Positions 4,788 through 28,430 of a stretch of DNA of 32,795 nucleotides are shown one piece after another (the stretch's first letter is position 1; every line of letters begins with the position of its first letter). The notes beneath the pieces are model-generated. The model saw nothing but the letters and a program-made list of their open reading frames with translations, was not told where the DNA came from and ran no database searches. Origin of the DNA: Reclinomonas americana ATCC 50394. Lineage: Eukaryota. The stretch covers positions 56,751-89,545 of the forward strand of contig PS015695.1 in assembly GCA_048213135.1 (NCBI GenBank). Direction: 5' to 3'. The position numbers were made by a program, and so were the translations under genes.

Positions 4788-4884
4788 TGCGGATATCCTT
4801 CGACAAGTTACGGAGATCACGTCGCCGCAGCTTGGTTGGGGCCTTGGCGGGAGCGTGCCACCTGATTGCCAGCGTCCGGCGCGC

Positions 4885-4904
4885 TTAACTTTGATCAAGG
4901 TTAA
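4885..4904 (-). promoter_or_regulatory. Overlapping FNR/FixK-type boxes upstream of gap
   Basis: TTGAT-CAAA-GTTAA on the minus strand (4898-4885) and TTGAT-CAAG-GTTAA on the plus strand (4891-4904). Confidence 0.65.
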
Positions 4905-7052: not shown

Positions 7053-7066
7053 TTGATCGGAATCAA
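7053..7066. promoter_or_regulatory. Consensus FNR/FixK box
   Basis: TTGAT-CGGA-ATCAA, a perfect match, upstream of the copL-like/MCO unit. Confidence 0.8.
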
Positions 7067-7316: not shown

Positions 7317-8627
7317 TCATCCGGCTGAAGTGCCCGAGACGCCTACTCCGAAAATCTGCGTCAGCAGTACCACGTTAAGAAGCAGCACAATAACAGTTCC
7401 AACAATCGCCATGGCTCCGATGAGCCGCGTATTGACGTATGGACCCATGATATCCGGGCGCCGCGTGAAGATCACCAGCGCGATCATCGGCACCGGCAGC
7501 GCAATGCTCAAGATGACCTGGCTGACAACGAGCGCGTTCGTGGCATTCACCCCGAGCGCGACGACGACAAAAGCCGGAACCATCGTCACGACGCGGCGTG
7601 CCCACAGCGGGATCCGAAATTGGACAAACCCTTGCATGATCATCTGACCGGCCATTGTGCCGACGACAGAACTCGAGATCCCTGATGCGATCAGCGACAC
7701 CAGGAACACCGCCGCGGCGGCAAAGCCCAAGAGCGGCGTCAAAGTATGATACGCGCTTTCGATTTCGGCGACATCGCTGTGTCCGTTATGAAAGGCGCTG
7801 GATGCCATCATGACCATGGCCATGTTGACGAGACCCGCGGCGGCGAGCGCCAGCACAACCTCGATGTTCGAAAACTTCAAGAGCTTGCGTCGCTCCGATT
7901 CACCGGCCACAGGTGCGCGCTGTTGGGTCAATCCCGAGTGAAGATAAAGAGCGTGGGGCATGACGGTCGCGCCTATGATGCCGACGGAGATGATCAGCGC
8001 CTCACGATCCGGAATGTGCGGCAATAGCGCACTGTATGAGGCCGCCGTCCAGTCAACCGGCGCGATGAACATTTCGACGAGGCAACACAGCCCAATGACC
8101 GCAATGAGGCTGCCTATGATCAACTCCATAGGACGGAAGCCGTGCTTCTCGAAAAGCAGGATTCCATAAGTCACGACCGCTGTGACCAGCATGCCCGCAA
8201 GGAGCGGCATGTGGGCGAGAAGAGACAGGCCGAGCGCCCCGCCGAGAAACTCGGCAAGATCTGTGGCCATGGCAGCGATTTCGCTTATGATCCACATCGC
8301 GATCACGATAGGGACGGGAAAGTATTCTCGGCACATTTCCGCAAGATTGCGCCCGGTCACGATGCCGAGCTTGGCCGAAAGCGCCTGAAACAGCATGGCG
8401 ATGAGATTCGCCATCAGGACAACCCACAGCAACGTGTAGCCGTATTTGGCACCGGCTTGAATGTTGGTGGCAAAATTGCCGGGGTCCATGTAGGCGATCG
8501 ATGTGACAACAGCCGGACCGGCAAATAGCAGGGCCGTGGTGGGCCCTCGACGCCGACCCGCCAGCGCCTCTTCGATGGCCGCAATGGTGCGCTGTGTCAC
8601 GGTCTGCAATGAGAGGAGAGAGGACAT
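7317..8627 (-). CDS. mntH: NRAMP-family Mn2+/divalent metal transporter MntH
   Basis: YMDPGNF and VMPHALYLHS metal-site motifs, GTMAGQMIMQGF, about 11 hydrophobic segments. Confidence 0.95.
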   Translation of the reverse strand: MSSLLSLQTVTQRTIAAIEEALAGRRRGPTTALLFAGPAVVTSIAYMDPGNFATNIQAGAKYGYTLLWVVLMANLIAMLFQALSAKLGIVTGRNLAEMCREYFPVPIVIAMWIISEIAAMATDLAEFLGGALGLSLLAHMPLLAGMLVTAVVTYGILLFEKHGFRPMELIIGSLIAVIGLCCLVEMFIAPVDWTAASYSALLPHIPDREALIISVGIIGATVMPHALYLHSGLTQQRAPVAGESERRKLLKFSNIEVVLALAAAGLVNMAMVMMASSAFHNGHSDVAEIESAYHTLTPLLGFAAAAVFLVSLIASGISSSVVGTMAGQMIMQGFVQFRIPLWARRVVTMVPAFVVVALGVNATNALVVSQVILSIALPVPMIALVIFTRRPDIMGPYVNTRLIGAMAIVGTVIVLLLNVVLLTQIFGVGVSGTSAG

Positions 8628-8718: not shown

Positions 8719-8778
8719 GTCGCTGCGATTCACATGGCTGCGGACTTGGACCATCCGCTCAATCAGAAAGCGACCTCA

Positions 8779-9270
8779 GTGACCGCGGCACAAATACGAC
8801 GACGGAGTGACTCATCGGACCGTGATGATCCACGGCAGGCTGAGCGGTTTGAGAAAGCCAGAGCGGCGCGATCGATGACGCTCTTGGAGGACTACGTCGA
8901 GCTGATCGCCGACCTGTTGAAAGAGCACGGCGAGGCTAGAACAACCGACATCGCCCGAATACTCGGGGTTACGCACCCCACCGCCACGAAGACGATAGCC
9001 AGGCTGAGGCGTGAGGGGTTGGCTGTATCGCGTCCTTATCGGGGCGTGTTTCTGACCGAAGCCGGAATTGCCCTGGCCGACCGGGTTCGGCGAAGGCACC
9101 GTCTCGTCGTAGAATTATTGATCGCGATCGGCGTACCGCAGGAGTCCGCTGAAGCGGACGCCGAAGGCATTGAGCACCACGTGTCAGATGTCACGCTGTC
9201 GGCATTCGAGCGTTATCTGAAGAAAAGCGCGGCCGGCGGCCGCAGCCTCGGTGCGACCGGCAAGCCGTGA
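8779..9270 (+). CDS. mntR: Manganese-responsive regulator MntR (DtxR family)
   Basis: EDYVELIADL...EARTTDIARILGVTHPT...PYRGVFLTEAG...RRRH...DAEGIEHHVS. Start is GTG 8779 or ATG 8734. Confidence 0.92.
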   Translation: MTAAQIRRRSDSSDRDDPRQAERFEKARAARSMTLLEDYVELIADLLKEHGEARTTDIARILGVTHPTATKTIARLRREGLAVSRPYRGVFLTEAGIALADRVRRRHRLVVELLIAIGVPQESAEADAEGIEHHVSDVTLSAFERYLKKSAAGGRSLGATGKP

Positions 9271-9352: not shown

Positions 9353-10606
9353 CTAGCCGAGATGCGGCAGCGTAACGAAGGCCGCAAAGCCGACGGCACC
9401 TGCCACTACGGAGGCGAGCGCGAGAGGAAGCCAGAAGCGCACTGGCCCGGTCGCTGCAGCGACGATGAGCCGGCCGGCGGCATTGGTTGCAAGCGCGATC
9501 AGCACGGCGTGCCCCACGGTCTCTCTATCGGCTGAGACGCCGAGAAGCCGTAATGCGCTCAGCACGGCAACGTCGATATCGAACGTGCCGGTGATCGCCG
9601 ACGTGACCACCATGCCGCCGGTGTTCCCGACCGAAACTGCAGCACTTATGGTCGATACCACCGCAAAAAGAATCGCAAAGGCCAGCAGTGCCCACAATTC
9701 GAAGGGGTTGCGTGGCATTTGCCCGGCGTCGCTTGGAACTGCACCGCGCGACAGGAACACCCCGCCACACATTACGAAAGTCAGCACCGCGGCAAGAATG
9801 GCTAGACCTGCGACGCCGAGCACTGATGGTGAGACGATCGCGACGATGCCGGCAACACGCAGCACCGAGACAGCCGCGGCGAGCGTGGCGGCTCCGGCCA
9901 GCGGCCAGGGATTGCCGCCTGCGGTTGCCGTCCGCGCGAGCGCCAGCGTGACCGCCGTCGACGACACTACTGCCCCCGCCAATCCGCCCACCAGCACTCC
10001 ACGTGTGGCTCCGAACAGGCGGACGGCAATATAGCCGAGGAACGAGATGGCAGCCGTCAGCACTGTGAACAGCCAGATCTGTTGCGGATTGAAGCCGCCC
10101 CACGGATCGATCGCCTGCGCAGGGAGGAGCGGCAGAATGATCGCCGTCATCACCGCCAGCACCAGCGCTGCGCGCAACTCGATCCAGGAGATGCGCCTGA
10201 GAAGGCCATGCAGCAGATCGCGACTGGCGAGCAGGACGGCGAGTGCGGTTCCTCCGGCGGCAGCTGCGCGGTGATCCCCCGTAACCGCCAGAGCTCCGAG
10301 CACGAACACGCCCAGCGCCGCGACAACGCCCGTCACGCTGAAATCGGCATCCTGAGTGGCTTCGCGGCTCTTGAACCACGCGAAGACCGCCGTGAAGGCG
10401 ATCAGACCCGCAATGAGCACCGAAGGCGCCTCGAGACTGCGGGAAAGCGCCGCGAACACGCCGCCCAGCAAGCCGGTGATCGCATAGGTACGGATACCGG
10501 CCGTCCTGGCACCGTCCGGGGCGTCGCGCTCGCGCCAGCCGCGCTCGAGGCCGACGAGCAGACCAATAGCCAGGGCGAGGCCGAACTTCGTGATCAAGAT
10601 TTCCAT
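9353..10606 (-). CDS. MgtC/SapB-family membrane protein with DUF4010 domain
   Basis: LALAIGLLVGLERGW...AGIRTY, ILPLLP...DPWGGFNP..IWL, GGLAGAVVSSTAVT, DIDVAVLS. Confidence 0.88.
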   Translation of the reverse strand: MEILITKFGLALAIGLLVGLERGWRERDAPDGARTAGIRTYAITGLLGGVFAALSRSLEAPSVLIAGLIAFTAVFAWFKSREATQDADFSVTGVVAALGVFVLGALAVTGDHRAAAAGGTALAVLLASRDLLHGLLRRISWIELRAALVLAVMTAIILPLLPAQAIDPWGGFNPQQIWLFTVLTAAISFLGYIAVRLFGATRGVLVGGLAGAVVSSTAVTLALARTATAGGNPWPLAGAATLAAAVSVLRVAGIVAIVSPSVLGVAGLAILAAVLTFVMCGGVFLSRGAVPSDAGQMPRNPFELWALLAFAILFAVVSTISAAVSVGNTGGMVVTSAITGTFDIDVAVLSALRLLGVSADRETVGHAVLIALATNAAGRLIVAAATGPVRFWLPLALASVVAGAVGFAAFVTLPHLG

Positions 10607-10649
10607 CGCGAGACTCCCGACGGCCGGCGACCATGATGGGAGACGTGCG

Positions 10650-11174
10650 TCATCGGGCTTTGCGGATCATCCGCCGCAGGACGTCGTCGCAGCGCCAGAA
10701 GTGGTGCCAAAGCGCGGCGCAGGCATGCAGGAGAACAAGAACGAGTAGCGTCCAGCTAAGGACGCTGTGAACCGGGGCGATCCGAAACGTCAGATACATG
10801 GCGATCGTTCCGGTGATCGGCAGCGCGATCAGCACGGCATAGAGGGCGGCGTGCATGGCTTTGGCCGACATGCGCTCCAACGGCGACAAGCCCGGAACAG
10901 GCGCCGGACGGCCGCATGTGAAGCGCAGCAGAAGCTGCGCCAGCGCGAGACCAAGAATGGCCCAACCGCTCCAGGCATGCACCTGATGCAGAAACAGGTC
11001 GATGGGACGCGGCTTCATGAACAGGTGCGCCATGTGGGTGCGCTGTATTGCCCAGGCGGTCGGCACCTGGACAAGACACAGGACCAGCACCAGCCAATGC
11101 ATGAGTCGATGCGCGAGAGGAAATCCGTCCGGGCGATCCGCGCCGCGCATCCATCCAGGCAACAGCGTCCTCAA
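10650..11174 (-). CDS. Cytochrome b561/b-type membrane protein
   Basis: RLMHW, LHQVHAWSG, MHAALY..L..LPITG, VHS, LHACAALWHHFW..DDVLRRM with four TM segments. The TTG start overlaps the upstream TGA. Confidence 0.85.
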   Translation of the reverse strand: MRTLLPGWMRGADRPDGFPLAHRLMHWLVLVLCLVQVPTAWAIQRTHMAHLFMKPRPIDLFLHQVHAWSGWAILGLALAQLLLRFTCGRPAPVPGLSPLERMSAKAMHAALYAVLIALPITGTIAMYLTFRIAPVHSVLSWTLLVLVLLHACAALWHHFWRCDDVLRRMIRKAR

Positions 11175-13035
11175 GCCTCGACCTCAACGATGTCGCCTGA
11201 GCGTGCGGCATAGTCGAGCGCATAGGCGAGCTCGCCTGTTGTCTCGGCGTGGACATTGAGAAGCGGCTGGCCGCGGTCGATCTCGTCGCCGAGCCTGACC
11301 TCCATGTGAACGCCCGCAGCCTTCGCTTCCGGCGCGCCCGCGAGCTTGGCGAGCCGGGAGAGCTTGCGGTTGNNNNNNNNNNNNNNNNNNNNNNNNNNNN
11401 NNNNNNNNNNNNNNNNNNNNNNNNNNNNNNNNNNNNNNNNNNNNNNNNNNNNNNNNNNNNNNNNNNNNNNNNNNNNNNNNNNNNNNNNNNNNNNNNNNNN
11501 NNNNNNNNNNNNNNNNNNNNNNNNNNNNNNNNNNNNNNNNNNNNNNNNNNNNNNNNNNNNNNNNNNNNNNNNNNNNNNNNNNNNNNNNNNNNNNNNNNNN
11601 NNNNNNNNNNNNNNNNNNNNNNNNNNNNNNNNNNNNNNNNNNNNNNNNNNNNNNNNNNNNNNNNNNNNNNNNNNNNNNNNNNNNNNNNNNNNNNNNNNNN
11701 NNNNNNNNNNNNNNNNNNNNNNNNNNNNNNNNNNNNNNNNNNNNNNNNNNNNNNNNNNNNNNNNNNNNNNNNNNNNNNNNNNNNNNNNNNNNNNNNNNNN
11801 NNNNNNNNNNNNNNNNNNNNNNNNNNNNNNNNNNNNNNNNNNNNNNNNNNNNNNNNNNNNNNNNNNNNNNNNNNNNNNNNNNNNNNNNNNNNNNNNNNNN
11901 NNNNNNNNNNNNNNNNNNNNNNNNNNNNNNNNNNNNNNNNNNNNNNNNNNNNNNNNNNNNNNNNNNNNNNNNNNNNNNNNNNNNNNNNNNNNNNNNNNNN
12001 NNNNNNNNNNNNNNNNNNNNNNNNNNNNNNNNNNNNNNNNNNNNNNNNNNNNNNNNNNNNNNNNNNNNNNNNNNNNNNNNNNNNNNNNNNAAGGCGGCCA
12101 GCCGCGTCCTCGCCGCGCACCTTCGCGGTGGCGCCGACCGGAATGTCGATCACGACATGGGTTGACCCCGCTGCGATCTTCTTGGACAGGACGGAGGCGA
12201 TCAGCTGGCCTTCGGTGTCGATATCGAGCTCGCGCTCGACGCGCACGAAGATATCGTCGGCCGGGCTCAGATGCACGGCGCCGCCCCAGGCGATACAGCC
12301 GCCTTCACGTTCAACGACGCGCCTCAATGTCGCGATGTCGAGTTCCACCGGAGCCAGCGTCTCCATCGTGTCGGCGGTGCCGGCCGGAGAGGTGATGGCA
12401 CGTGACGAGGTCTTGGGCATGAGCAGGCCGTTTGCCGCGACGATCGCGACCACGATCGGCGTTGTCCTGTTGCCGGGGAGGCCGCCGACGCAATGCTTGT
12501 CGACCACGATCGGCGCGTCCCAGCGCATCCGTTCGCCGACGTCCACCATAGCGCCGGTCAGGTCGGCGGTTTCGTTCTCGTCGAGGGGGAGGGCAGCACT
12601 GGCGGTCAGAAAGGCCGCAAGGTGGACCTCCGTGTAGCGGCCGGCGACCACGTCGCGCAGGATCTCGGAAAAGGCTCGGGAGTCGAGCCGATTGCCGTAG
12701 ATGCGCTGACGCACGCTCGCCAGGGAGTCAATCGCTGGCGCATGGCTGACCCGGACCACATCACCGTCGGTCAGGCCAAGCCGTTCCCACGCGGCCTCGG
12801 AAAGGCCGACCTCGTCGATGGCGATGAGCCCGTCACCATCGACCTGAAACAGGGTCGCCTGCACCTCGCCATTCCCGTTGGACACGAGCACCTGCGAGCG
12901 CGCCGACAGTCCCTCCGACCGGCAGACGTGGCAATCGGTGCGCATGACGACGACAGCCTGATGCTGGGTGTGCAGATGGATGCGTCGCACCCGCAGCGTC
13001 GGTTGAGCGGGAATGGCCATGTCGGTCGACGTCAT
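11171..13035 (-). CDS. AMP phosphorylase-like / thymidine phosphorylase family protein (spans the gap)
   Basis: N-terminal extension, VDKHCVGGLPGNRTT, KTSSRAITSPAGTADTME, LSPADD, ASVLSKKIAAGS..V.IDIPVG.TAKV. After the gap: NRKLSRLAKLAGAPEAKAAGV...GQPLLNVHAETTGELAYA...VEVEA* (TGA 11173-11171). The ATG overlaps the upstream TGA. Confidence 0.9.
11373..12090. other. Assembly gap (718 N)
   Basis: Run of N inside the phosphorylase gene. Confidence 1.
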
Positions 13036-14047
13036 AGATCGAACTTCTGGTTCTGACGGGGAACGACGGCGTTCCACTTGAGCTCGCGGTCGATGCGAAC
13101 GCGCAGGGCTTCCGCGCCTTCGTCTTCACCATGCACGATGAACACACGTGACGGCGGTCGCCGGAAGCCCGAAAGCCATCGCATCAGCTCGTTCGAATCG
13201 GCGTGGGCTGACAGCATCGACAGTTCCTCGACCGCAGCGCGAACCGGAATCCATTCGCCGTGGATCTTGGTCTCCTGCGCGCCTTGCAGCATGGCCCGGC
13301 CGCGGGTGCCGGCTGCCTGGAAACCGGAGAACAGGATCGTGTTGCGGGCGTGTGGAGCGAACGCCTTCAGGTGGTGGAGGACGCGCCCGCCGGTCGCCAT
13401 GCCGCTCGCCGAGATCACCACCTTGGGGTAGGGGCTTGCCGTGATGCCCTTCGAGCCGTCGACGTCGCGGGTGTAGGTCGCAATCGCGCAGACTTCCTTG
13501 CATTGCTCCGGCGTCAGGCGGTGGTCCCCGCGGTGGGCGTGGAGGAGGTCGGTGGCGTCGATTGCCATCGGACTGTCAAGATAGACAGGCACCTTCGCCA
13601 GGCGCCCAGCCCTTTTGAGCTTCCAGAGATGGTAAAGGAGCGATTGCGCGCGGCCCACGGCGAAGGCGGGAACGACGACCGTCCCGCCGCGCGCGACCGT
13701 TCGCTCGACGACGGCGCCGAGCGCTTCGGTGGGATCGGCAGGATCGTGCACACGGTTGCCGTAGGTCGATTCGACCAACACATAGTCCGCCTCCGGCACC
13801 GGCACGGGATCGGGAAGAACCGGATCGTCATAGCGGCCGAGATCGCCGGAGAAGGCGACACGGCGTCCGCCCCATTCGATCTCGGCGGTGGCGGCCCCAA
13901 GGATGTGACCGGCATGGCGGAAAGTCAGCGTCGCGCCGAACGAGAGCTTGACCGGTTTGTTCGAAGGGAACGGTCGAGAAGAGTTCGAGGCGTGTGCTCA
14001 GCGTCACGGATGCCGTAGAGGGCGAGCGCCGCTGTGCTCGTAAAGAC
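13032..14047 (-). CDS. MBL-fold beta-CASP ribonuclease (YSH1/TTHA0252-like); N-terminus lies in the gap
   Basis: HAGHILGA, FSGDLGR, VESTYGNR, PAFAVGRAQ, YLDSPMA, ISASGMATGGRVLHHL, GFQAAGTRGR, LSAHAD, VHGE. There are two apparent +1 slips near the contig end (about 13950-13995). Confidence 0.9.
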
Positions 14048-14677
14048 NNNNNNNNNNNNNNNNNNNNNNNNNNNNNNNNNNNNNNNNNNNNNNNNNNNNN
14101 NNNNNNNNNNNNNNNNNNNNNNNNNNNNNNNNNNNNNNNNNNNNNNNNNNNNNNNNNNNNNNNNNNNNNNNNNNNNNNNNNNNNNNNNNNNNNNNNNNNN
14201 NNNNNNNNNNNNNNNNNNNNNNNNNNNNNNNNNNNNNNNNNNNNNNNNNNNNNNNNNNNNNNNNNNNNNNNNNNNNNNNNNNNNNNNNNNNNNNNNNNNN
14301 NNNNNNNNNNNNNNNNNNNNNNNNNNNNNNNNNNNNNNNNNNNNNNNNNNNNNNNNNNNNNNNNNNNNNNNNNNNNNNNNNNNNNNNNNNNNNNNNNNNN
14401 NNNNNNNNNNNNNNNNNNNNNNNNNNNNNNNNNNNNNNNNNNNNNNNNNNNNNNNNNNNNNNNNNNNNNNNNNNNNNNNNNNNNNNNNNNNNNNNNNNNN
14501 NNNNNNNNNNNNNNNNNNNNNNNNNNNNNNNNNNNNNNNNNNNNNNNNNNNNNNNNNNNNNNNNNNNNNNNNNNNNNNNNNNNNNNNNNNNNNNNNNNNN
14601 NNNNNNNNNNNNNNNNNNNNNNNNNNNNNNNNNNNNNNNNNNNNNNNNNNNNNNNNNNNNNNNNNNNNNNNNNNNNN
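14048..14677. other. Assembly gap (630 N)
   Basis: Run of N covering the phosphoketolase 3' end and the beta-CASP 5' end. Confidence 1.
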
Positions 14678-16994
14678 TGCGTTCGGCGACTGTCAGAAAT
14701 TCGTTGCGCGACCATCCGGCCAAAGGTGCGGCGGCATCGATCAGGTGCGCCCAACTGCAGCGATTGGCGAATAGCAGGCCCGAGGCATCCAGCGTGCCGC
14801 CCCGGCTGATATAGCCGCGGGCCACAGTGTGTTTCGGACCGCTGTCGAGCCGTCGCAGCAGGCCGAGCATCGGCTCGGGCCGTGTGTGCGAGACGATCAG
14901 GCGCGGGACATCGACCGGGAAGAGGCGCACGAGCTCCTCGTCCGACGCCACAAAATGCGCCTCGATCGGATCGCGCGGGATACGGAAGCGACCGGGCTCG
15001 CTGATCGCCGTCACCACCACCCGCCGTCCATGCTCTTTCAGGCGGTGCGCCGCCTTGAGCGCCTCTTCGAGCTGGTAGGCGCCGATCGCAACGATCTGCA
15101 ACTCGGCGCCGTCAACCTGTCCTTCGATGTGGGCAGCGCCGTCGGCGACAAAACGGACGGCGGCCGCGCCGTCGAAGCGGTGCGGCATGTCGCGCTTGGA
15201 GACGATCACGCAGGCGACCTGGCCGCGTCCTTCGAACACCGAAGCCATGGTGGCGACGGCGCTGTTGGCGTCGACCGGAAACAGAACGCGCGCGGTGTCC
15301 GACATCTCGCCGAGCAGCGCCTCGCCGATCGTCGGATCCTGATGCGACTGCTCGTTCTTGGAATTCTCCCAGGTATGCGAGGTGACGACGAGCGGCACGG
15401 AAATCCAGCCTGGGTTCTGGCCCACGGTGCGTTGGTGGCGCGCGAAGATAATCTCCTGACGCAAGCCACCCAGCATCTTCATCGCGAATGCTTCGTAGCT
15501 GACGATGAGGTTGATCCCGCCTTTGTTCGCAAGGGCCGCGGCGGCGACCGCCTCCTCGTTGAGCGCCGTGATCACGCTGCCGTTGCGTGCCTCGGCGACG
15601 CCGGTCTCCGGCGAATTGACGCGATGGCGCAGGCGCTCGAGGGTCGCGCCCATATGATTGGAGCTCAACTCGTCGGGGTTGCCGACACGCACGCGCAGAG
15701 CAGGATTGGCGTCGACGAGCCGTACAAACCAGCGATCCAGCGCGTGCATAGCGCAATCCGCCGGTGAGCCGGCTTCCGTCCAGTGGGGGGCAGGGAGTTC
15801 CGGCGCCGGCGGATGGCGGACCGCCAGAGGGTGAAGGCTCTCCGCTGGCCGGTTCTGCCGCTCGTGGACCGCTACGGCAGCGACCGCCGCCTCGATGTCG
15901 CCAGGTGGGACGAACAGGTCTTTCGCCGCGGCGTTGAAGGCGCTGCGCGCAGCTTCGTTTCGCGAAGGGTTTGCTGCCAGAGGCAGGTTGTGCGCGGCAT
16001 TGGTGCCTGCGCCAGGGAAGCCGAACCCCTTCACGGTCTTGGCGATGACGTAGGGCATGGGGGCCGGATAGGCGCGATCGGGATCGGCGGAAAAGCGCCC
16101 AAGGCGTTCCTCCACCGTCAGGATCGCCCAGACGAAGGCCGCGGGATCGCGACCGTCGATCTCGAACGGATCGAAGCCGTTGAGCCTGAGATGATCGGCG
16201 AGCCAGGCCGCGCCGCCCTGCTGCGCAATCTGCGCCCGCTCCTCGATCCTTCGGCCGTTGAGGATCATGACCGGCACAACGAGACCGCTATCCTCAGCTC
16301 GCCACCAGCGCGCCGTCCAGTCCGAGCCGCGCTGCTCCTCGAAGGCGCCGTCGCTCAGGAAGGCGACCAGACTTTCTCCCGGCAGTGGGGCATGGACGTA
16401 CTGGACCTCGGCGAAGCCGAGATACCCGCCCTCGGAAATGGCGCCAGCCGTGTTCGGTCCGGCATGGCTGCCGATCGGCACCGCCGGACCGCCGTCGGCA
16501 TCGATGGCATAGGAATAGAAGTCGGCGGCGAGCCGGGACAACCCCTTCTCGCTGCGGTCATAGCGCCCTTTCTGCGCATCCGAAACATCGCCGGTCAGCG
16601 CGTTGATCGCCTCGATCGCGGCGACGCAATGGCCCTGGCCCATCAGCCAGGAGCGAGTGGTGGCCGAGAGTGCGTTCGCCGCGAGATAGCCGATAAAGGC
16701 CGGCACCATGTTCAGGGAACCGCCGGTGTGGCCTTCCGGCGTGGCCTTGAAGGCGTCGGCCGGCAGCGCCGCACCGGACAGATCGACGCGGCTTGCATAG
16801 GTCATGTGGACGACTGTCCACATCGCCGCGCTGGCCAGCCGGTCGGCGGCGGCAAGCAGGCGGTAGAGCGCGTCAGGGTCCAGCTTCGGCGACTGCGCGA
16901 GCGAGCGAATGCGCTCGACGGTCTCGTCGGTATGCGTGATCGGGCCGTAGCCGGCGCGCCAATGTTCGAATGCTGAGGACGTCGTCGCGGCCAT
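14678..16994 (-). CDS. xfp: Divergent phosphoketolase (XFP family, TPP-dependent); 3' end lies in the gap
   Basis: EGHTGGSLN, GQGHC, GSHAG, EGGYLG, LSDGAFEE...ILNG, KTVKG, PDELSSN, SYEAF, SHQDP, FPVDANS, IVSKR. Confidence 0.85.
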
Positions 16995-17042
16995 GCGTTT
17001 GCTGCCTTCAAGGATTGATTTGCTTTACGGCTGTTGGCCGGT

Positions 17043-18077
17043 TCATCCGACCCCGCCGGTCCAGGGCGGAGGATCGCTCGCGGGGAAGGAATCGATACCA
17101 GCGCGTTCGACGTCGTCGACCGCCTCGGGTGGGCGTCGATGACGGATGAGTTCGCGATCAGGCGCGTCGGCAGCCGCGATCGCGTCGGCGATCAGCTGCG
17201 AGAGTCCGATCGCGTTGGTCGGGTGACGGACCGAATCGGTGGACACGATCCTGCCGCAAAGCGGCGCCAGGCGCGTATAGGAATCCCCGGCGAAGATGCC
17301 GTGCACGACAGCGACGTCGGGACGTGGGAATCCAAGCGGCGGCAGCTTGCGCGCCGCTTCGATGAGCGTGTTGCCGGAGGAGGCGATGTCGTCGACCAGG
17401 ACGGGCTGCAGCCCGCTCCATGAAGAGAGGTCGGGAAACGCGATCTCGACGTCGCGGTCGCCATGCCGGATCTTGCGCAGCACCGCATGCGGTGCGCCGA
17501 TCTTTGCGGCGATGGCAGACACCCATTGCTCGCTTTCCTCGTCCGGACCGATGATCAGCGGACTGGCAACCGACGCGGCGATCCACTCCGCCAGGAGCGG
17601 CGCCGCATGCAGCGTCAGCGCCGGGATTTCGTAGAGCGCGGACAGCGCCGGATAGCGGTGCAGGTGCGGATCGACGGTGACGAGCCGGTCGAAGCTGGAC
17701 GAGATCAGGCGCGCGAAGGTTCGCGAGGTGATGGCCTCACCCGGCCGGAAACGCCGATCCTGCCTCATATAGGCCAGATAGGGAGCGATCAACGTCACCG
17801 CGGTGGCGCCGAGCGATCGGGCCGCGTCAGCGAGAAAGATGAGCCGGAGAAAGCCTTCATCGGGGCGAGCGAGCGTCGAGACCAGAAGAACCGATTTTGC
17901 TGCGACGTCGCCGGCGAGGCGCACATAGCTCTCGCCATCCGGAAAGTTGCGCGTTTCGATCTCCCCCAGTTCGCCGGCGCCAGCGTTCGCAAGTGCTCGC
18001 GCAAATGCTTCATTGCCGGGGAGAGCAACGATGACGGGAGCCGAAGTCATCTGGGCTGGGGCAGGAGGCATCATCAT
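17043..18077 (-). CDS. prs: Ribose-phosphate pyrophosphokinase-like protein with C-terminal SFPASDPP tail
   Basis: FPDGESYVR, PYLAYMRQDRRF..GEAI, VDPH, PD, K.R, VLVDDIASSGNT, VHGIF, STDS. Several possible ATG starts (18050-18077). Confidence 0.9.
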   Translation of the reverse strand: MMMPPAPAQMTSAPVIVALPGNEAFARALANAGAGELGEIETRNFPDGESYVRLAGDVAAKSVLLVSTLARPDEGFLRLIFLADAARSLGATAVTLIAPYLAYMRQDRRFRPGEAITSRTFARLISSSFDRLVTVDPHLHRYPALSALYEIPALTLHAAPLLAEWIAASVASPLIIGPDEESEQWVSAIAAKIGAPHAVLRKIRHGDRDVEIAFPDLSSWSGLQPVLVDDIASSGNTLIEAARKLPPLGFPRPDVAVVHGIFAGDSYTRLAPLCGRIVSTDSVRHPTNAIGLSQLIADAIAAADAPDRELIRHRRPPEAVDDVERAGIDSFPASDPPPWTGGVG

Positions 18078-18186
18078 TCTTTCGCAGTCTCGTTCCGGCG
18101 TGCAGACGGACGCGCGGTCAGCTCATGATTTCTTGCCCAAAGGCGAAGACAGGTCCCCGATAAAGCCCGCACGGAAGCTCGATTCT

Positions 18187-18200
18187 TTAATCGAGATTAA
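18187..18200 (-). promoter_or_regulatory. FNR/FixK-like box upstream of the prs operon
   Basis: Palindromic TTAAT-CGAG-ATTAA within TCTTTAATCGAGATTAAGTTC, which is 19/21 identical to 32671-32691. Confidence 0.6.
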
Positions 18201-18306
18201 GTTCTTGCCCTTGGTGTCGGGCCGGTCTGCGCGCTGGAACGGTGTTTCCGGACATGCGCAAAGGGCATGCTCAAGGGCACCGGCCAACAGCTTTCCGGAC
18301 TCAATC

Positions 18307-18320
18307 TTGATCTGAGTTAA
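18307..18320 (+). promoter_or_regulatory. FNR/FixK-like box upstream of ftsH
   Basis: TTGAT-CTGA-GTTAA followed by AG. Confidence 0.65.
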
Positions 18321-18484
18321 AGTTCTGGCCCTCCCGGGCGCGCATTTTGGCGACCAAGCAGGCTTCAAGCGCCTTTTAGCAAAGAACCTTGTTGATCCTG
18401 GCGCTCAATAGACGCGGCGATCCATGACGTACCTGGCTGATGACATGAACCGCATTGGCCGTCGCGCGCGCGAGAAGTACGGGA

Positions 18485-20368
18485 ATGCAGCTGATGGAGA
18501 ATGAGAACAAAGCGTCGACAAAGCGGGTCTTCAAGTTCGACATCCTGTACTTTATTGCCGTCTTCTTCGCCGTTCTGCTGATCCGGGATCTGCTTGTCGG
18601 TCAAGGCCACATCAAGGTCATTCCGTACAGCGAATTCCAGAGCCTGATCGAAAAGGACGCCGTCAGCGACCTGGTGGTCGGACCGACGGAGATCACCGGC
18701 GCTTACAAGCCGCCGGTCGAGAAGGACGCGCCCCAGCATTTCTCCACGGCTCGCGTCGAGCCGCAGATCGCCGACCTGCTGACCAAGCGCAATATATCGT
18801 TCTCGGGCAAAGCCGCGCCGGGCCTGTTCGAAAACCTGCTCTCGTGGCTGATGCCGGCGGCGATGTTCGTGTTGATCTGGATGTTTTTGCTGCGGCCAAT
18901 GATGGCCGGACAGCATGGCGGCCTGATGGGCATCGGGCGCAGCCGGGCGAAAGTCTATGGCGAGAGGTCTGTAAAGGTGACCTTCGCCGATGTCGCGGGC
19001 GTCGATGAAGCCAAGCAGGAGCTCGCCGAAGTCGTCGGTTTCCTTAAGGACCCGGCAACCTATGGCCGGCTCGGTGCGCGCATTCCCAAGGGCCTGCTTC
19101 TCGTCGGTCCGCCCGGAACCGGCAAGACGCTGCTGGCGCGTGCCGTCGCCGGGGAATCGGGGGTTCGCTTCTTTTCGATTACCGGTTCCGAATTCGTCGA
19201 GATGTTCGTCGGCGTCGGCGCTTCGCGCGTGCGCGACCTCTTCCAGCAGGCGCGCGAGCAGGCCCCCGCCATCGTCTTCATCGACGAACTCGATGCGCTC
19301 GGTCGCGCCCGCGGCGTCGATATGCCGGGCGGTGGACATGACGAAAAAGAGCAGACGCTCAATCAGCTGCTCGCCGAGATGGACGGCTTCGACCCGAGCA
19401 TCGGCATTGTCGTCCTGGCCGCGACGAACCGGCCAGAGATTCTCGATCCCGCGTTGCTGCGCGCCGGTCGCTTCGATCGCCAGGTTCTGGTCGACCGCCC
19501 CGATCGTCAGGGCCGGATCGACATACTGAACGTGCATCTGAAGAAGATCAGTGTGGCGCCCGAACTCGACGTCGCGGCGGTCGCGGCGCTCACGCCCGGC
19601 TTCACCGGCGCCGATCTCGCCAATCTGGTCAACGAAGCCGCGCTTGTGGCCACGCGCCGCGGCGCGAGCGCCACCGTGCTCGACGATTTCACGCAGGCCG
19701 TGGAACGTATCGTCGCCGGCCTGGAGAAGAAAAGCCGGATTCTCATTCCACGCGAGCGCCAGATCGTCGCCCATCACGAGATGGGACATGCGCTCGTCGC
19801 CATGGCGCTTCCCCAGAGCGACGTGGTGCAGAAGGTCTCGATCATCCCGCGCGGCATTGCTGCGCTCGGCTACACGCTCCAGCGGCCGACCGAGGATCGC
19901 TTCCTGATGAGCCAATCCGAACTGCAAGATCGCATGGCGGTGCTGCTTGGCGGTCGGGCCGCCGAAAGCCTGGTGTTCGAGGAGATTTCGACAGGCGCGG
20001 CGGACGATCTCGTCAAGGCGACGGACATCGCACGCAACATGGTGGTCCGGTTCGGCATGTCGAAGGAGCTGGGACAGGTCGCTTATGAACCGGAGACCGG
20101 CAGCTTCCTCGTCGGACAGACCCCGGTCTGGCGGCCGCGCACCTATAGTGATGAGACGGCCGAGGCCATCGATCACATGGTGAAAGACCTGATCGACCGC
20201 GCCTTCCAAAAGGCACGCGCGATCCTCGAGCGCAACCGCTCCGTGCTGGATAGCAGCGCGCGCGAACTCCTCGCGCGCGAAACGCTGGGGCCTGATGAGC
20301 TGGCCAAGCTGACCGCCGGTCTCTCGCGCGAGGCGTCGGGCCGGCCGGGGCTCGCTCTCGTCGAATGA
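18485..20368 (+). CDS. ftsH: ATP-dependent zinc metalloprotease FtsH (accessory paralogue)
   Basis: Two TM helices, [59 protein letters not shown]. Start is ATG 18485 or 18494. Confidence 0.95.
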
Positions 20369-20429
20369 TGCGGATCAAACGCTGTCGGCTCCCTGCCGAG
20401 CCGGCGCATGCTGTTCAAGGGACCATAAA

Positions 20430-21416
20430 GTGCGCAGATCGCCTCTTGTCGTCATCGCCGTCTTGGTCGCAACCGCCGCGGCCGGCGGCTATGTCTATTG
20501 GCTCGGTACGCAGAACCGGGTTCCGGCAGGCCTGGCGCGAGTGAATGGAAGGATCGAGGTCGAGCGGGTCGACATCACCAGCAAATATGCCGGGCGACTG
20601 GCTGAAGTCCTGGTCAACGAGGGCGCGAACGTCAACAAGGGCGACGTGCTTGCCCGGCTCGATACGAGCGAGATCCAGGCCCAGTTGACGGCCGCGCGCG
20701 CCGCCGTCCATCGCAGCCATCAGAGCGTCGCCAGCGCGCAAGCGAGTGTTGCCCTGCGCGAGGCTGAACTCAATCTTGCGCAAGTCGAACTCCAGCGTGT
20801 CGTCGACCTCATGCGAACGAACACTTCGACCCAGGCCGAGCTCGATCGCCGCACGGCGCAACGCGACATTTCAAGAGCGTCTCTGCAGACCGCTAAAGCC
20901 GCGGTCGAGGACGCCAAGGCCTCGGTGGAGGTTGCCGAGGCGCAGGTCAGCCAGATCGAAGCCGCCATTGCCGACATGACGTTGAAGGCCCCGGTATCAG
21001 GCCGCGTCGAGTACCGTCTCGCCCGAACCGGCGAGGTCGTCGGCGCCGGGGGGCGCATATTGACGGTCTTCGACCTCTCGGACGCCCATATGACGATCTA
21101 TCTTCCGACGGCCTCGGCCGGTCGTGTGGCGGTTGGCGCGCACGCGCGCCTCGTGCTGGACGGCCCGGGCGGCTACGTCTTGCCGGCGATCGTGTCGTTC
21201 GTTTCGGCCGACGCGCAGTTCACACCGAAATTCGTCGAGACGGCGAATGAGCGCGAGAAGCTGATGTATCGCGTCAAGCTGCATCTCGACCCGGCGCTGG
21301 TCGCCTCCGAGCGGGGCTATGTCAAGGCGGGGATGACCGGCAACGCCTATGTTCCGGTGACCCCAGACGCGCTTTGGCCAACCGAACTTGCGCCGAGGCT
21401 GCCCGATGAAGGCTGA
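20430..21416 (+). CDS. yhiI: HlyD-family membrane fusion protein (YhiI-like)
   Basis: N-terminal TM, NGRIE, V.EG..V.KGDVLARLD, coiled coil, LKAPVSGRV, AQFTPKFVET.NEREKLMYRVK. Confidence 0.9.
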   Translation: MRRSPLVVIAVLVATAAAGGYVYWLGTQNRVPAGLARVNGRIEVERVDITSKYAGRLAEVLVNEGANVNKGDVLARLDTSEIQAQLTAARAAVHRSHQSVASAQASVALREAELNLAQVELQRVVDLMRTNTSTQAELDRRTAQRDISRASLQTAKAAVEDAKASVEVAEAQVSQIEAAIADMTLKAPVSGRVEYRLARTGEVVGAGGRILTVFDLSDAHMTIYLPTASAGRVAVGAHARLVLDGPGGYVLPAIVSFVSADAQFTPKFVETANEREKLMYRVKLHLDPALVASERGYVKAGMTGNAYVPVTPDALWPTELAPRLPDEG

Positions 21417-24174
21417 GCCCGCCACAGCCGTCAGCCTGTCGGGCGTCCAACATGCCTATGGGAAGGTGATCGCTCTTCGCAGTCTGGCTCTGACCATTCC
21501 GCGAGGGTGCAAGCTCGCCATCGTCGGCCCGGACGGGGTCGGCAAGTCGACCTTGCTCGGCTTGATCGCGGGGGTTCGCCGCATTCAGCGCGGTTCGGTC
21601 AATGTGCTGGGCGGCGACATGGCTTCGGCGGCGCACCGCCGCGAGGCCGCGCCCCGCATCGCCTATATGCCGCAAGGGCTCGGACGCAATCTCTACCCGA
21701 CCTTGTCGGTCTACGAGAACATCGACTTCTTCTCCCGGCTGTACAGCCAGCCGGACGATAGTCGGCGTCGGCGCATCGACGAGCTCATGCGGGTCACCGG
21801 GCTGTTTCCGTTCGCCGATCGCCCGGCGGGAAAGCTCTCCGGCGGGATGAAGCAGAAGCTCGGGCTGTGTTGCGCGCTGGTTCATGATCCCGATCTCCTC
21901 ATTCTGGACGAACCGACGACCGGCATCGACCCGTTGTCGCGCCGCCAGTTCTGGACGTTGATCGGACGTATCCAGGCCGAGAGGCCGACCATGACGGTGA
22001 TCGTGGCGACCGCGTACATGGAGGAGGCTGGCGCCTTTGATCGCATCGTGGCAATCGACGATGGCGCGATCATTGCGGACGGGAGCCAGGCAGAACTGCT
22101 TGCGCGCGCCGGCGCCACCACTCTCGAACAGGCCTATATCGAGCTACAGCGTCCGGAACGGCGCGGGGCGCGCGCGGCGCCGTCCGTGCCGCGTCTCGAA
22201 CCCGACGGCGGACCGCCGGCCATCGTGGCCGAAGGCCTGACCATGCGCTTCGGCGATTTCACCGCGGTCGATCATGTCAGCTTTCGCATCGAGCGCGGCG
22301 AGATTTTCGGCTTCCTCGGCTCCAATGGCTGCGGCAAGACGACGACGATGAAGATGTTGACCGGGCTGCTTCCGGCGACCGAAGGTCATGCCGAGCTCCT
22401 GGGCAAGGCGGTCGATGCGCGCGACATCTCGACGAGGACGCGGATCGGCTACGTCTCGCAGTCTTTTTCGCTTTACGAAGAGCTGACCGTGCGCGGCAAT
22501 CTCGAGCTGCACGGACGACTGTGCGGCATCGGCGGCAAGGGGCTGCGTGAGCGGGTGGATGAGGCCTTGTCACGCTTCGAGCTCGGCAAGGTCGCCGAGA
22601 CGCTGCCGGACGCCTTGCCCTTGGGCATGCGCCAACGCCTTCAGCTGGCGGCGGCATGCCTGCACCGGCCGGACGTCCTGATCCTGGACGAGCCCACCTC
22701 GGGCGTCGATCCGGCGGCTCGCGACCGCTTCTGGAGCCTTCTGCTCGAGATGTCGCGCCGCGACGGGGTGACGATCTTCATCTCGACGCATTTCATGAAC
22801 GAGGCCGAGCGCTGCGACCGCGTCTCTCTCATGCATGCGGGCCGCGTGCTGGCGGTCGGCGCGCCACGCGAGCTCCAGGCCGCACGTGAGGCCGCAAGCC
22901 TCGAGGATGCCTTCGTCGCCTATTTGGAAGATGCGGCGGGTACGGGTGTTGGCGAGCCGTCCGTGACTGATGAAGCGGTTGGCGTGATCGAGCCGACCTC
23001 AGTGAGGCTGAACGACAATGCCGAGGTGGCGCAAACGCCGCGCCTTGCTTCGATGAAGCGGATCTGGACGTTTGCACGCCGGGAGGCGCTCGAGCTCAGC
23101 CGGGATCGCATCCGGCTGGCCTTCGCGCTGATCGGTCCGCTGCTGCTGATGGCGGCGTTCGGCTACGGGATATCGTTTGATATCGAAGGTTTGCGCTACG
23201 CGGCGCTCGACCGTGACCAATCTTTGGAAAGCCGGGCGTTTCTCGACCAGTTCTCGAACTCGCGGTACTTCGTCGAGCAGGCACGTCTAAACGACGATGT
23301 CGACATCGACCGGCGACTGCGCGCCGGCGAGCTGAAATTCGCCATCGACGTCCCACCCGGCTTCGGCCGCGAGCTTTTACAGGGCCACAGGCCCGAGGTC
23401 GGCTTCTGGCTCGACGGCGGCAATACCTTCCCCGCCGAGACCGCGCGCGCCTACATTCTTGGAACGCTTCAGACCTACGCCGGCGAGCTGGCGCGCGCCG
23501 CCAATCGCGCCAACGGACTGCCAGCCGAGACGCTGCGGGTCGAGCCGCGCTTTCGTTACAATCAGGATTTCCGTTCCGTCGTCGCGATCACGCCGGGATC
23601 GATCATGCTGCTGCTGATCATCTTCCCGGCGATGCTGACCGCCCTCGGCGTCGTGCGGGAGAAGGAGATGGGGTCGATCGCGAATGTCTATGCTTCGCCG
23701 GCGACGGTCGGCGAGTATCTGCTCGGAAAACAGCTCCCCTATGTTGTGATCGGCGTCCTGAGCTATCTCAGCCTGCTGGCTTTCGCCGGTGGCGTACTGG
23801 GCGTGGTGCCGAAGGGCTCGCTGCTGGCGCTCTCGCTCGCAGCCCTGATCTATGTCTACGCCGCGACGGCATTCGGGCTTCTCGTGTCCGCCTTCGTCTC
23901 GACCCAGGTCGCCGCGATCTTCGGCACCGCGATCCTGACGGCGATGACCGCAGCGCATTATTCGGGCTTCCTGATCCCGGCCTCCTCGCTCGAGGGGCCG
24001 GGCCGCATCATGGGCCTGTCCTTCCCGCCGCTTTGGTTTCAGACCATCAGCCTTGGCGTGTTCGCCAAGGGCCTCGACACGCCAGCGTTCGCCCGCGAGC
24101 TTCTGATGCTGGCGGGGTTCGCGCTTGGTTTCCTGCTGCTAGCACGTCTTTTGATCCGCAAGCAGGGGACGTAG
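21406..24174 (+). CDS. rbbA: Ribosome-associated ATPase / ABC transporter RbbA (two NBDs fused to a permease)
   Basis: GPDGVGKS, YMPQGLGRNLYPTLSV, LSGGMKQK, GSNGCGKTT, LPLGMRQR, STHFMNEAERCDR and a C-terminal ABC-2 permease. Confidence 0.93.
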   Translation: MKAEPATAVSLSGVQHAYGKVIALRSLALTIPRGCKLAIVGPDGVGKSTLLGLIAGVRRIQRGSVNVLGGDMASAAHRREAAPRIAYMPQGLGRNLYPTLSVYENIDFFSRLYSQPDDSRRRRIDELMRVTGLFPFADRPAGKLSGGMKQKLGLCCALVHDPDLLILDEPTTGIDPLSRRQFWTLIGRIQAERPTMTVIVATAYMEEAGAFDRIVAIDDGAIIADGSQAELLARAGATTLEQAYIELQRPERRGARAAPSVPRLEPDGGPPAIVAEGLTMRFGDFTAVDHVSFRIERGEIFGFLGSNGCGKTTTMKMLTGLLPATEGHAELLGKAVDARDISTRTRIGYVSQSFSLYEELTVRGNLELHGRLCGIGGKGLRERVDEALSRFELGKVAETLPDALPLGMRQRLQLAAACLHRPDVLILDEPTSGVDPAARDRFWSLLLEMSRRDGVTIFISTHFMNEAERCDRVSLMHAGRVLAVGAPRELQAAREAASLEDAFVAYLEDAAGTGVGEPSVTDEAVGVIEPTSVRLNDNAEVAQTPRLASMKRIWTFARREALELSRDRIRLAFALIGPLLLMAAFGYGISFDIEGLRYAALDRDQSLESRAFLDQFSNSRYFVEQARLNDDVDIDRRLRAGELKFAIDVPPGFGRELLQGHRPEVGFWLDGGNTFPAETARAYILGTLQTYAGELARAANRANGLPAETLRVEPRFRYNQDFRSVVAITPGSIMLLLIIFPAMLTALGVVREKEMGSIANVYASPATVGEYLLGKQLPYVVIGVLSYLSLLAFAGGVLGVVPKGSLLALSLAALIYVYAATAFGLLVSAFVSTQVAAIFGTAILTAMTAAHYSGFLIPASSLEGPGRIMGLSFPPLWFQTISLGVFAKGLDTPAFARELLMLAGFALGFLLLARLLIRKQGT

Positions 24175-24176
24175 CG

Positions 24177-26604: not shown

Positions 26605-26824
26605 GGCACAGAGCCGATCTTGTATGAGAACACCGGTCGCGCTCTGCGCCTGACGCGGCTCTTGCAATTTCTAGGTGGGCGAACAGCCAATTGAGCTGCA
26701 AAGCGTTCGACACCATTTCATCCACGCCCTTCGACGAGACGTCGCGCGCGAGCCGACCAGCGGGGCGCCAAGGGCTTGACGAGCGACCGAAGCTTCGAGC
26801 TAGACTTGGGATTCAACGAAGTCT

Positions 26825-26838
26825 TTAATCCGCATCAA
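26825..26838 (-). promoter_or_regulatory. FNR/FixK-like box between the divergent MFS and nuclease genes
   Basis: The minus strand reads C-TTGAT-GCGG-ATTAA-AGA. Confidence 0.7.
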
Positions 26839-26947
26839 GCTTTTAGCCGACATCGTCGTTTGTTCGTGCTCCAGACGACGATCAGCCATGCTAGGTACAA
26901 GAATCGATGTCTGGCGCTAGCCTGACCGGGGAAGAGCGTCCGACACC

Positions 26948-28255: not shown

Positions 28256-28430
28256 CGCGAGAGCCGTCGCGCGTCGTCCTGGCCAGGCTGTTGTGGAATG
28301 CCGCCCTTTGCTGGCGGTCGTCCCGACCCTACGAAAGGCCGTGTCCGATGAGCATACCTGCAAAGGCGGGACATCAGAGCCAGATCGATTCAACGTCGAT
28401 CCGATTCATCGAACTGCCGGGACCCAAGAC

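Follow-up and report, generated by a model that had tools for sequence, protein, structure and literature searches.

The DNA considered here is a stretch of 32,795 nucleotides (nt), positions 56,751 to 89,545 of the forward strand of contig PS015695.1 in the Reclinomonas americana ATCC 50394 assembly GCA_048213135.1. The whole stretch is called the window, and positions are counted from its first letter. Six genes on its minus strand make up the operon that is the subject of this study. In the order of transcription they encode a paralogue of phosphoribosyl pyrophosphate (PRPP) synthase (Prs-like; 17043-18077, identified as an open reading frame (ORF) and by a family scan with NF005537), a divergent phosphoketolase-like protein (XFP-like; visible part 14678-16994, 772 codons, Pfam XFP and XFP_N), a beta-CASP/RMMBL ribonuclease-type protein (visible part 13032-14047, Pfam Beta-Casp and RMMBL), a homologue of the archaeal-type nucleotide phosphorylases that act on adenosine or nucleoside monophosphates (AMP/NMP) (the phosphorylase; 11171-13035, NF003338), a cytochrome b561 family protein (10650-11174, Pfam Ni_hydr_CYTB, 79.5 bits) and an MgtC/DUF4010 membrane protein (9353-10606, Pfam DUF4010 121.6 bits and MgtC 48.5 bits). 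A terminator-like hairpin on the same strand, found by a consensus scan only, lies 3' of the MgtC/DUF4010 gene at 9228-9244, at the end of the operon. The six-gene block is a real, translationally coupled operon, carried on a plasmid-type stress and metal island.

The genes are closely spaced. The ribonuclease and phosphorylase genes overlap by an ATGA at 13032-13035, and the phosphorylase and cytochrome b561 genes by a TTGA at 11171-11174. Both overlaps had been described in an earlier, sequence-only reading of the window, as had the shortness of the other visible spacers (under 50 bp), which measure 48 nt between the Prs-like and XFP-like genes and 43 nt between the cytochrome and MgtC/DUF4010 genes. 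The TTG start of the cytochrome gene is a mechanical call; the same 4-nt overlap is annotated by RefSeq in a plasmid of Pseudorhizobium flavum. This plasmid (207 kb, MOBQ) bears the same block with 90.9% identity across 5.7 kb, and the RefSeq names of its products are ribose-phosphate pyrophosphokinase, xylulose 5-phosphate 3-epimerase, MBL fold metallo-hydrolase, thymidine phosphorylase family protein, cytochrome b and MgtC/SapB.

Two runs of N interrupt the genes of the operon. The run at 11373-12090 hides the middle of the phosphorylase and splits its gene. The run at 14048-14677 hides the last codons and the stop of the XFP-like gene together with the 5' part of the ribonuclease gene, including its HxHxDH motif. 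The nearest genome, G001, is 99% complete and was used as a stand-in for the window's own genome. Its contig C4 (134,459 bases) is collinear with window positions 6807-32795 at 98-99% identity, and the counterparts of the two runs are 380 and 405 bases long there, the 405 nt corresponding to the run at 14048-14677. Every operon gene is intact in G001, the phosphorylase having 508 amino acids (aa), the XFP-like protein 789 aa and the ribonuclease about 452-456 aa. In G001 the start of the ribonuclease gene either overlaps the XFP-like stop as ATGA or follows it at a distance of 8 nt. An RNA library, X1, contains an 8819-nt contig that spans 14678-18138 and continues beyond the compared stretch, as well as a second contig at 18319-21500, and the runs X2, X13 and X14 contain short pieces only. 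The X1 contigs cannot show transcripts, their ends or their levels, and the library may hold DNA, so that the uncovered interval 18139-18318 carries no meaning.

The N-terminal fragment of the phosphorylase that is visible in the window scores 435.4 bits with NF003338 (cut-off 434). The full-length G001 protein, which is 98-99% identical, scores 675.2 bits with the same model and 586.7 bits with TIGR02645 (cut-off 434.6). It falls short of the cut-off of the AMP_phos equivalog TIGR03327, with 484.2 against 535 bits, and the two window fragments score 309.1 and 44.4 bits with that model. Compared to solved structures, the protein gives 312.4 bits with the AMP phosphorylase of T. kodakarensis (4GA5) and 116 bits with the best pyrimidine-nucleoside phosphorylase. 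An N-terminal extension precedes the thymidine-phosphorylase fold: the family models match from residue 13-14, and the 4GA5 alignment opens by pairing residue 67 of the protein with residue 50 of the chain, whereas alignments with the nucleoside phosphorylases do not begin until about residue 108-135. The earlier assignment of the enzyme to the archaeal AMP type is supported in so far as the protein is far nearer to the AMP/NMP phosphorylases than to the nucleoside phosphorylases. When 401 species genomes of Pseudomonadota were sampled, about 48 places matched the phosphorylase over its full length.

Natural fusions give clues to the product of the phosphorylase. A search with its visible N-terminal part against 1.84 billion representatives yielded 401 proteins at E <= 1e-30. 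Ten of the twelve long representatives that were tested consist of an N-terminal PhnN domain (TIGR02322, 160-208 bits, cut-off 156) followed by an NF003338 phosphorylase. One of the other two, P0159, is a fusion of a Prs-like protein (NF005537) to the phosphorylase, and the last has neither domain. Further long forms comprise one that joins ribonuclease and phosphorylase pieces and four that contain inteins; in P0186, P0229, P0256 and P0259 (912-950 aa) an intein with a LAGLIDADG endonuclease sits inside the catalytic domain. PhnN phosphorylates ribose 1,5-bisphosphate (R15P), thereby forming PRPP, and in E. coli it is able to stand in for PRPP synthase (summarised in PMC9700705).

The neighbourhood of the phosphorylase gene was surveyed in two sets of loci, the best 80 of 575 metagenome relatives (73 of them unfused) and, as a second, independent sample, the top 30 places in the 401 Pseudomonadota genomes (28 unfused). 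A Prs-like gene lies directly downstream in 57 of the 73 unfused metagenome loci, many of the remaining 16 stopping at a contig edge, and adjoins the phosphorylase gene in 25 of the 28 unfused Pseudomonadota loci, or 82 of 101 for both sets together. PhnN is fused to the phosphorylase or overlaps it in nine loci of the two sets, and none of these nine has a Prs-like gene. The Fisher p of this exclusion is 7.7e-5 for the metagenome set alone, a value that overstates the significance because related loci are not independent. All eight PhnN-linked loci that have upstream sequence carry, directly upstream and on the same strand, a gene for a phosphoribosyltransferase of the NAD pathway, which is NadC in seven and PncB, with an isochorismatase-family gene (PncA), in one. 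NadC is found in none of the unfused phosphorylase loci of either set. The coupling of PhnN to the phosphorylase, the absence of the Prs-like gene where this occurs and the NAD gene upstream support R15P as the probable product of the phosphorylase and PRPP as the probable hub of the module. These findings are the strongest evidence for both at the level of sequence, indirect as it is for R15P.

A third set of loci is anchored on the XFP-like gene. Species genomes yielded 543 confirmed relatives, of which the 80 best, with 57-89% identity, make up the set. The beta-CASP ribonuclease gene is present in 62 of these 80 loci, the phosphorylase gene in 53 and the Prs-like gene in 51. Type II glyceraldehyde-3-phosphate dehydrogenase (GAPDH) occurs in 17. 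MgtC/DUF4010 (8 loci) and cytochrome b561 (6 loci) are lineage-specific riders. When only the 58 loci flanked by 5 kb or more on each side are considered, all three partners of the XFP-like gene are present in 34, the ribonuclease and phosphorylase in 4, the ribonuclease alone in 8, other pairs in 2 and none in 10. The gene order varies. Prs-like, XFP-like, ribonuclease, phosphorylase is found 28 times, XFP-like, ribonuclease, phosphorylase, Prs-like 12 times, XFP-like, ribonuclease, phosphorylase 6 times and phosphorylase, Prs-like, XFP-like, ribonuclease once, and two loci show an inverted block. Linkage that outlasts rearrangement argues for a shared function. Seen from the phosphorylase, in the 80 metagenome loci, the picture is different: a ribonuclease gene is present in 27, an XFP-like gene in only 3, and in two of these three an acetate kinase gene stands ahead of the XFP-like gene. 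Because the pair of phosphorylase and Prs-like genes is widespread and the XFP-like gene is rare beside it, the four-enzyme operon is an enlarged version of the pair. The four enzymes are linked in the majority of the well-flanked XFP-like loci (34 of 58), in at least four gene orders, but they do not form a universal set, and the core of the association is the phosphorylase and Prs-like pair only. The hosts of the XFP-anchored loci include Rhizobiaceae, Bosea, Rhodopseudomonas, Paracoccus, Brevundimonas, Hyphomonas, Achromobacter, Pigmentiphaga and Luteimonas, and this spread, together with the plasmid copies, indicates that the block is mobile.

The Prs-like protein (344 aa) passes the curated models NF005537 (420.6 bits, cut-off 322) and TIGR01251 (185.8 bits, cut-off 113). 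Among solved structures it is closest to 1U9Y, the M. jannaschii enzyme, to which 267 residues can be aligned, and it presumably belongs to the archaeal-type class of PRPP synthases. The alignment contains the stretches FPDGE, RQDR and DD..S.GNT, which we take to be the usual Prs motifs. The canonical substrate of Prs is ribose 5-phosphate, not R15P, and the reaction is reversible. The G001 chromosome encodes a separate housekeeping Prs (382.6 bits), so the operon protein is a second paralogue. The C-terminal tail of the protein reads ...SFPASDPPPW (window 17046-17090). A motif of the form [FYW]P[AG]SD[PA] is present at this end in 23 of the 51 Prs-like proteins of the XFP-anchored loci and in 0 of the 57 of the phosphorylase-anchored loci. 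Three loci (L049 and L050, near 17385, and L065, near 8959) also have the motif in small ORFs of its own next to the cluster, and it may be a docking peptide.

The XFP-like protein matches the Pfam domains XFP (141.6 bits, cut-off 22) and XFP_N (48.7 bits, cut-off 23.7). Its similarity to solved phosphoketolases is low, only about 100 bits and about 25% identity. The window protein is 97% identical to the G001 copy, which is the sole XFP-family gene in that genome. Thirteen active-site residues of the Bifidobacterium phosphoketolase are listed in PMC10547157. According to a profile alignment, ten of them are kept in the XFP-like protein (H64, H97, H142, G155, H320, S440, E479, Y501, N549 and H553), and among these E479 corresponds to Glu479, which activates thiamine diphosphate. 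Acetate kinase is encoded in 33 of the 80 XFP-anchored loci, often directly upstream of the XFP-like gene, and Pta in 7. G001 has three AckA genes, all located elsewhere. The most economical reading is that the XFP-like protein would be an acetyl-phosphate-forming enzyme with an altered sugar pocket.

The visible part of the ribonuclease scores 116.1 bits with Pfam Beta-Casp and 65.2 bits with RMMBL. Its closest solved relative, at 269.7 bits, is TTHA0252, which we take to be an active Thermus RNase. The HxHxDH motif, covered by the N run in the window, reads HAHLDH in the G001 copy. Compared to G001 and the P. flavum plasmid, the window gene has two 1-base insertions (at about 13956-13965 and at 13986-13999). 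Both are no more than 90 nt from the second N run, and the remaining three run edges are free of insertions and deletions. Insertions so close to an N run, and hence to the end of an assembled piece, are probably assembly errors; if real, they would mean that the gene is broken in the window strain.

The sequence-only reading had placed the six co-directional genes behind one FNR-like box. The six genes are indeed all on the minus strand; the single box has become two sites. The first is the FNR/FixK-like box TTGATCTGAGTTAA at 18307-18320, in the intergenic region between the divergent Prs-like and FtsH genes, with 1 mismatch to TTGA-N6-TCAA. The second, at 18188-18201, is the palindrome TTAATCTCGATTAA, which has 2 mismatches and precedes the ATG of the Prs-like gene by 111-124 nt. 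In the related loci L001, L002, L003, L007 and L015 the first box is matched by TTAACTCAGATCAA or TTAACTCAAATCAA (operon strand), 242-246 nt upstream of the Prs-like gene, and L015 also has TTAATCTCGATCAA, with 1 mismatch, at -132, the place that matches the second palindrome. Among other relatives, L020 has a box at -72 and two Achromobacter loci have perfect boxes at about -115. Several loci in which the phosphorylase gene comes first contain ATGAT-N4-xTCAA at -59 to -72, which resembles the site of the Bradyrhizobium operon. That operon, bll3117-bll3116-bll3115 of B. diazoefficiens, has the FixK2 box ATGATCTGGGTCAA at -74, and in a fixK2 mutant bll3117 is down 6.6-fold and bll3115 down 30.6-fold (PMC9104804). 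Furthermore, the proteins and transcripts of all three genes are up in microoxia, as reported in PMC6515984. Low-oxygen control of the operon is likely in this lineage, and not across the whole family. Seven of the ten window boxes with at most one mismatch are intergenic, lying ahead of the genes for type II GAPDH, HlyD/ABC, a major facilitator superfamily (MFS) protein and a P-type ATPase, and between those for the oxidase and Nramp.

The reading that we favour, with a probability of roughly 0.45, is that the operon recycles nucleotide ribose under low oxygen, possibly to ATP. The sequences themselves show the gene content, the translational coupling, the linkage across gene orders, the natural fusions and the retained catalytic residues; from these we infer every enzyme activity, which way the flux runs and that oxygen controls the operon in this organism. 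At low oxygen, an FNR/FixK-type regulator would turn the operon on. The ribonuclease would release 5'-nucleotides from RNA, and the phosphorylase would convert nucleotide and phosphate to free base and R15P. The sugar phosphate would then be kept in a pool of R15P, PRPP and ribose 5-phosphate, on which the Prs-like enzyme would act. The XFP-like enzyme would split xylulose 5-phosphate (or fructose 6-phosphate) into acetyl phosphate and glyceraldehyde 3-phosphate, and ATP would come from acetate kinase, encoded elsewhere, and from the type II GAPDH of the island. The route might be closed in two steps, in which the chromosomal PhnN would convert R15P and ATP to PRPP and ADP, and the Prs-like enzyme, running in reverse, would convert PRPP and AMP to ribose 5-phosphate and ATP. 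The net reaction would be R15P + AMP to ribose 5-phosphate + ADP, after which a housekeeping isomerase and epimerase would feed the XFP-like enzyme.

A number of observations weigh against this reading. No gene known to use R15P is present among the operon genes, the R15P isomerase family (TIGR00511) has 0 matches in G001, and the PhnN gene of G001 (192.6 bits) is chromosomal and hence outside the operon. The chain from RNA to acetyl phosphate that the sequence-only reading had put forward is thus plausible but unproven, lacking its R15P-using step in the operon and an isomerase in G001. The XFP-like protein stays below every NCBIfam phosphoketolase cut-off, with at most 145.8 bits against 777-1518. 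The three changed pocket residues, Q321N, Q546N and H548K, are invariant in 12 members of the clade; the first two each shorten the side chain by one methylene and the third brings in a lysine. Its description as a phosphoketolase accordingly has the Pfam domains, the ten retained residues and the acetate kinase neighbours in its favour, and the failed curated cut-offs and the pocket changes against it. A family scan of the window proteins found no acetate kinase, which is a further difficulty, and no Pta. Being present in only 3 of the 80 metagenome phosphorylase loci, and accompanied by no phosphorylase in 27 of the 80 loci of its own set, the XFP-like protein is possibly an independent fermentative enzyme. 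The ribonuclease gene is frameshifted as assembled. Both boxes of the operon are imperfect, with one and two mismatches, and the count of window sites with at most one mismatch is not significant (10 against 5.8 expected; 8 of 100 shuffles reach 10), so that support for the boxes comes from their position and their conservation in relatives. A crude survey found a box upstream in 24 of 78 loci, against roughly 12% expected, and a second one in only 19 of 91 unfused phosphorylase loci, against about 12%; as operon starts were guessed in both, the modest excess is a hint only. A literature search, with most subscription journals outside its scope, found no biochemical or genetic test of any member. 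Finally, the modules made of NadC, PhnN and phosphorylase point to an anabolic supply of PRPP rather than to catabolism, and supply or salvage of PRPP explains the core of phosphorylase and Prs-like protein at least as well as an energy yield does.

This last function can be extended to the operon as a whole. The phosphorylase and its PRPP-forming partner, the Prs-like protein in the window and PhnN elsewhere, would maintain PRPP for the salvage of NAD and nucleotides and would clear AMP from cells that are starved of energy and do not grow. The XFP-like protein would then be an independent fermentative enzyme that draws on pentose or hexose phosphates in general and shares only its regulation with the others. 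The idea is a serious if somewhat doubtful one. It accounts for NadC, or PncB with PncA, standing directly upstream of the PhnN-phosphorylase units in 8 of 8 cases, for the mutual exclusion of Prs-like and PhnN partners (0 of 9 against 82 of 101), for the rarity of the XFP-like gene beside the phosphorylase gene (3 of 80) and its pairing elsewhere with acetate kinase in loci that have no phosphorylase, and for a Prs-like protein that scores above the cut-offs of the curated Prs models and is encoded in addition to the housekeeping enzyme. The four genes of the XFP-like clade, however, are linked through rearrangements and translationally coupled, which suggests one pathway, and a beta-CASP ribonuclease and a type II GAPDH suit bulk breakdown better than fine salvage. 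If only the catabolic chain to acetyl phosphate is set against the supply of PRPP, the odds are about even. A self-contained bisphosphate route, needing neither R15P isomerase nor Rubisco because a divergent enzyme of the operon handles the bisphosphate, is unlikely. In one variant the XFP-like enzyme would cleave a ketopentose (ketose) bisphosphate, expelling phosphate instead of water, and in the other the Prs-like enzyme would convert R15P directly, passing the energy of the 1-phosphate into the adenylate pool. The changes Q321N, Q546N and H548K may give the pocket the room and charge for an extra phosphate, and no isomerase was found in G001 to turn R15P into a ketose, an absence that would call for such a route and at the same time deprives its first variant of a substrate. 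Similarly, the Prs-like protein occupies the slot that PhnN, an R15P kinase, has in the sister modules, and there is no other candidate R15P-using gene in the operon, but the protein retains the motifs of ordinary Prs enzymes and exceeds the cut-offs of the Prs models. The XFP-like gene, for its part, is often simply paired with acetate kinase, as are ordinary phosphoketolases.

Two explanations that do without a metabolic pathway have little in their favour. Carriage on mobile islands and plasmids, together with an RNase and nucleotide-cleaving enzymes, would suit an anti-phage or conflict system that depletes nucleotides or degrades RNA. Such a function is very improbable, as PADLOC models match 0 of the 6 operon proteins, the neighbours are stress, metal and fermentative genes, and a homologue is induced by FixK2 in microoxia. 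It is equally hard to believe that unrelated passengers came together by chance on a mobile island. The flanking IS66 and metal-resistance genes and the variable presence of cytochrome b561 and MgtC/DUF4010 are what chance assembly would produce, but linkage through different gene orders, natural fusions and 4-nt overlaps of starts and stops are not.

Ribose recycling at low oxygen, our favoured reading, draws in part on the surroundings of the operon. The type II (archaeal-type) GAPDH gene lies outside it, at 3750-4790 on the minus strand (NF003251, 440 bits, cut-off 185), its start coordinate being estimated from the 1041-nt RefSeq gene of P. flavum. Overlapping FNR-like boxes are found upstream of it at 4885-4904, and the P. 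flavum block is also near a type II GAPDH gene. On the other side of the operon, a gene for an FtsH paralogue (18455-20368, plus strand, TIGR01241, 753.4 bits) is transcribed divergently from the shared intergenic region, an arrangement repeated in L001, L002, L007 and the P. flavum plasmid. It is the first of a set of genes at 18455-25301, followed by HlyD, a fused ATP-binding cassette (ABC) ATPase-permease (RbbA in RefSeq) and an ABC-2 permease, all transcribed away from the operon. The FtsH-HlyD-ABC set is kept beside the operon in L001, L002, L007 and L015. An FNR-like site, ATGATGCGGATCAA, is located at 20365-20378, and a perfect one, TTGATCGGAATCAA, at 7053-7066.

Genes for an MntR-type repressor (8734-9270, plus strand) and Nramp/MntH (7320-8627, minus strand) lie between those for MgtC/DUF4010 and a multicopper oxidase. 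L002, L007 and the P. flavum plasmid leave no room for these two genes, which indicates a local insertion in the window. At the left end, pieces of an IS66-family transposase and of IS66 Orf2 occupy 2-1522, with an N run at 1176-1518, and a truncated MFS gene (1616-2287) adjoins them; together they would mark the edge of a mobile element. Towards the right end, about 1.7 kb between an MFS gene and a DUF3141 gene (26671-28433) is devoid of family matches, and only about 390 nt separate these genes in L003. The P. flavum plasmid (L171, 27545-30697) carries arcA, argF and arcC with an adjoining YfcC-family gene about 9 kb from the block. The arginine deiminase pathway on that island is another oxygen-independent source of ATP.

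The operon resembles several known systems and differs from each of them. It shares its predicted first step and a closely homologous phosphorylase (4GA5) with the archaeal NMP shunt, or pentose bisphosphate pathway, of T. kodakarensis, described in PMC9700705. Unlike in the archaeal pathway, the phosphorylase is accompanied by a Prs paralogue, a beta-CASP RNase and a phosphoketolase-like protein, it is below the AMP_phos cut-off and R15P isomerase has no match in G001; Rubisco was not searched for. The operon is a new form, in bacteria, of the nucleotide-phosphorylase pathway of archaea. The NadC-PhnN-phosphorylase modules contain the same NF003338 subfamily and a PRPP-forming partner, whereas in the window the partner is the Prs-like protein and no NAD gene is adjacent. 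With the phosphoketolase-acetate kinase pathway (Bifidobacterium Xfp, 3AHC and 3AI7; cyanobacterial enzyme, 8IO8) the XFP-like protein has the fold family and pocket residues in common, but the similarity is weak, the three pocket residues differ and RefSeq calls the protein 'xylulose 5-phosphate 3-epimerase'.

The FixK2 operon bll3117-bll3116-bll3115 of B. diazoefficiens encodes the same three families, namely thymidine phosphorylase family, Prs and MBL fold hydrolase, a homology to the window proteins that is judged by annotation names and not by sequence. The gene order is different there, and the phosphoketolase-family gene bll2518 is in a separate operon with acetate kinase. The available parts of PMC9104804 and PMC6515984 assign no function to bll3117-bll3115. 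Apart from archaeal work, the literature search yielded only these two expression papers, which hold all the experimental data found for the module. In B. cenocepacia the lxa locus, an island activated by low oxygen, encodes a metal-dependent RNase, cytochrome b561, an ABC transporter, a cation ATPase and acetate kinase, and its deletion mutant is impaired on ribose and nucleosides (PMC3721108). Table 4 of that paper lists no phosphorylase, Prs paralogue or phosphoketolase, and the likeness is one of gene descriptions, not of sequences. No paper mentioning both ribose-1,5-bisphosphate and phosphoketolase was found in the literature search. The sequence-only reading had called the system undescribed, which is correct for its biochemistry but not for its expression, in view of the FixK2 and microoxia data from Bradyrhizobium.

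Should the favoured reading be true, many bacteria would own a route so far known from archaea, which saves the energy of the nucleotide bond as R15P, and the ribose of RNA would be recycled or burnt when respiration fails. If the Prs-like enzyme moves the energy of the 1-phosphate of R15P to adenylates, phosphorolysis of one AMP would help to recharge another. The large 'thymidine phosphorylase family' and a family of Prs paralogues would gain a function, phosphoketolases would gain a new clade, and the role of a FixK2 target in nitrogen-fixing Bradyrhizobium would be explained. The alternation of PhnN and the Prs-like protein and the link to NAD genes make the hypothesis directly testable.

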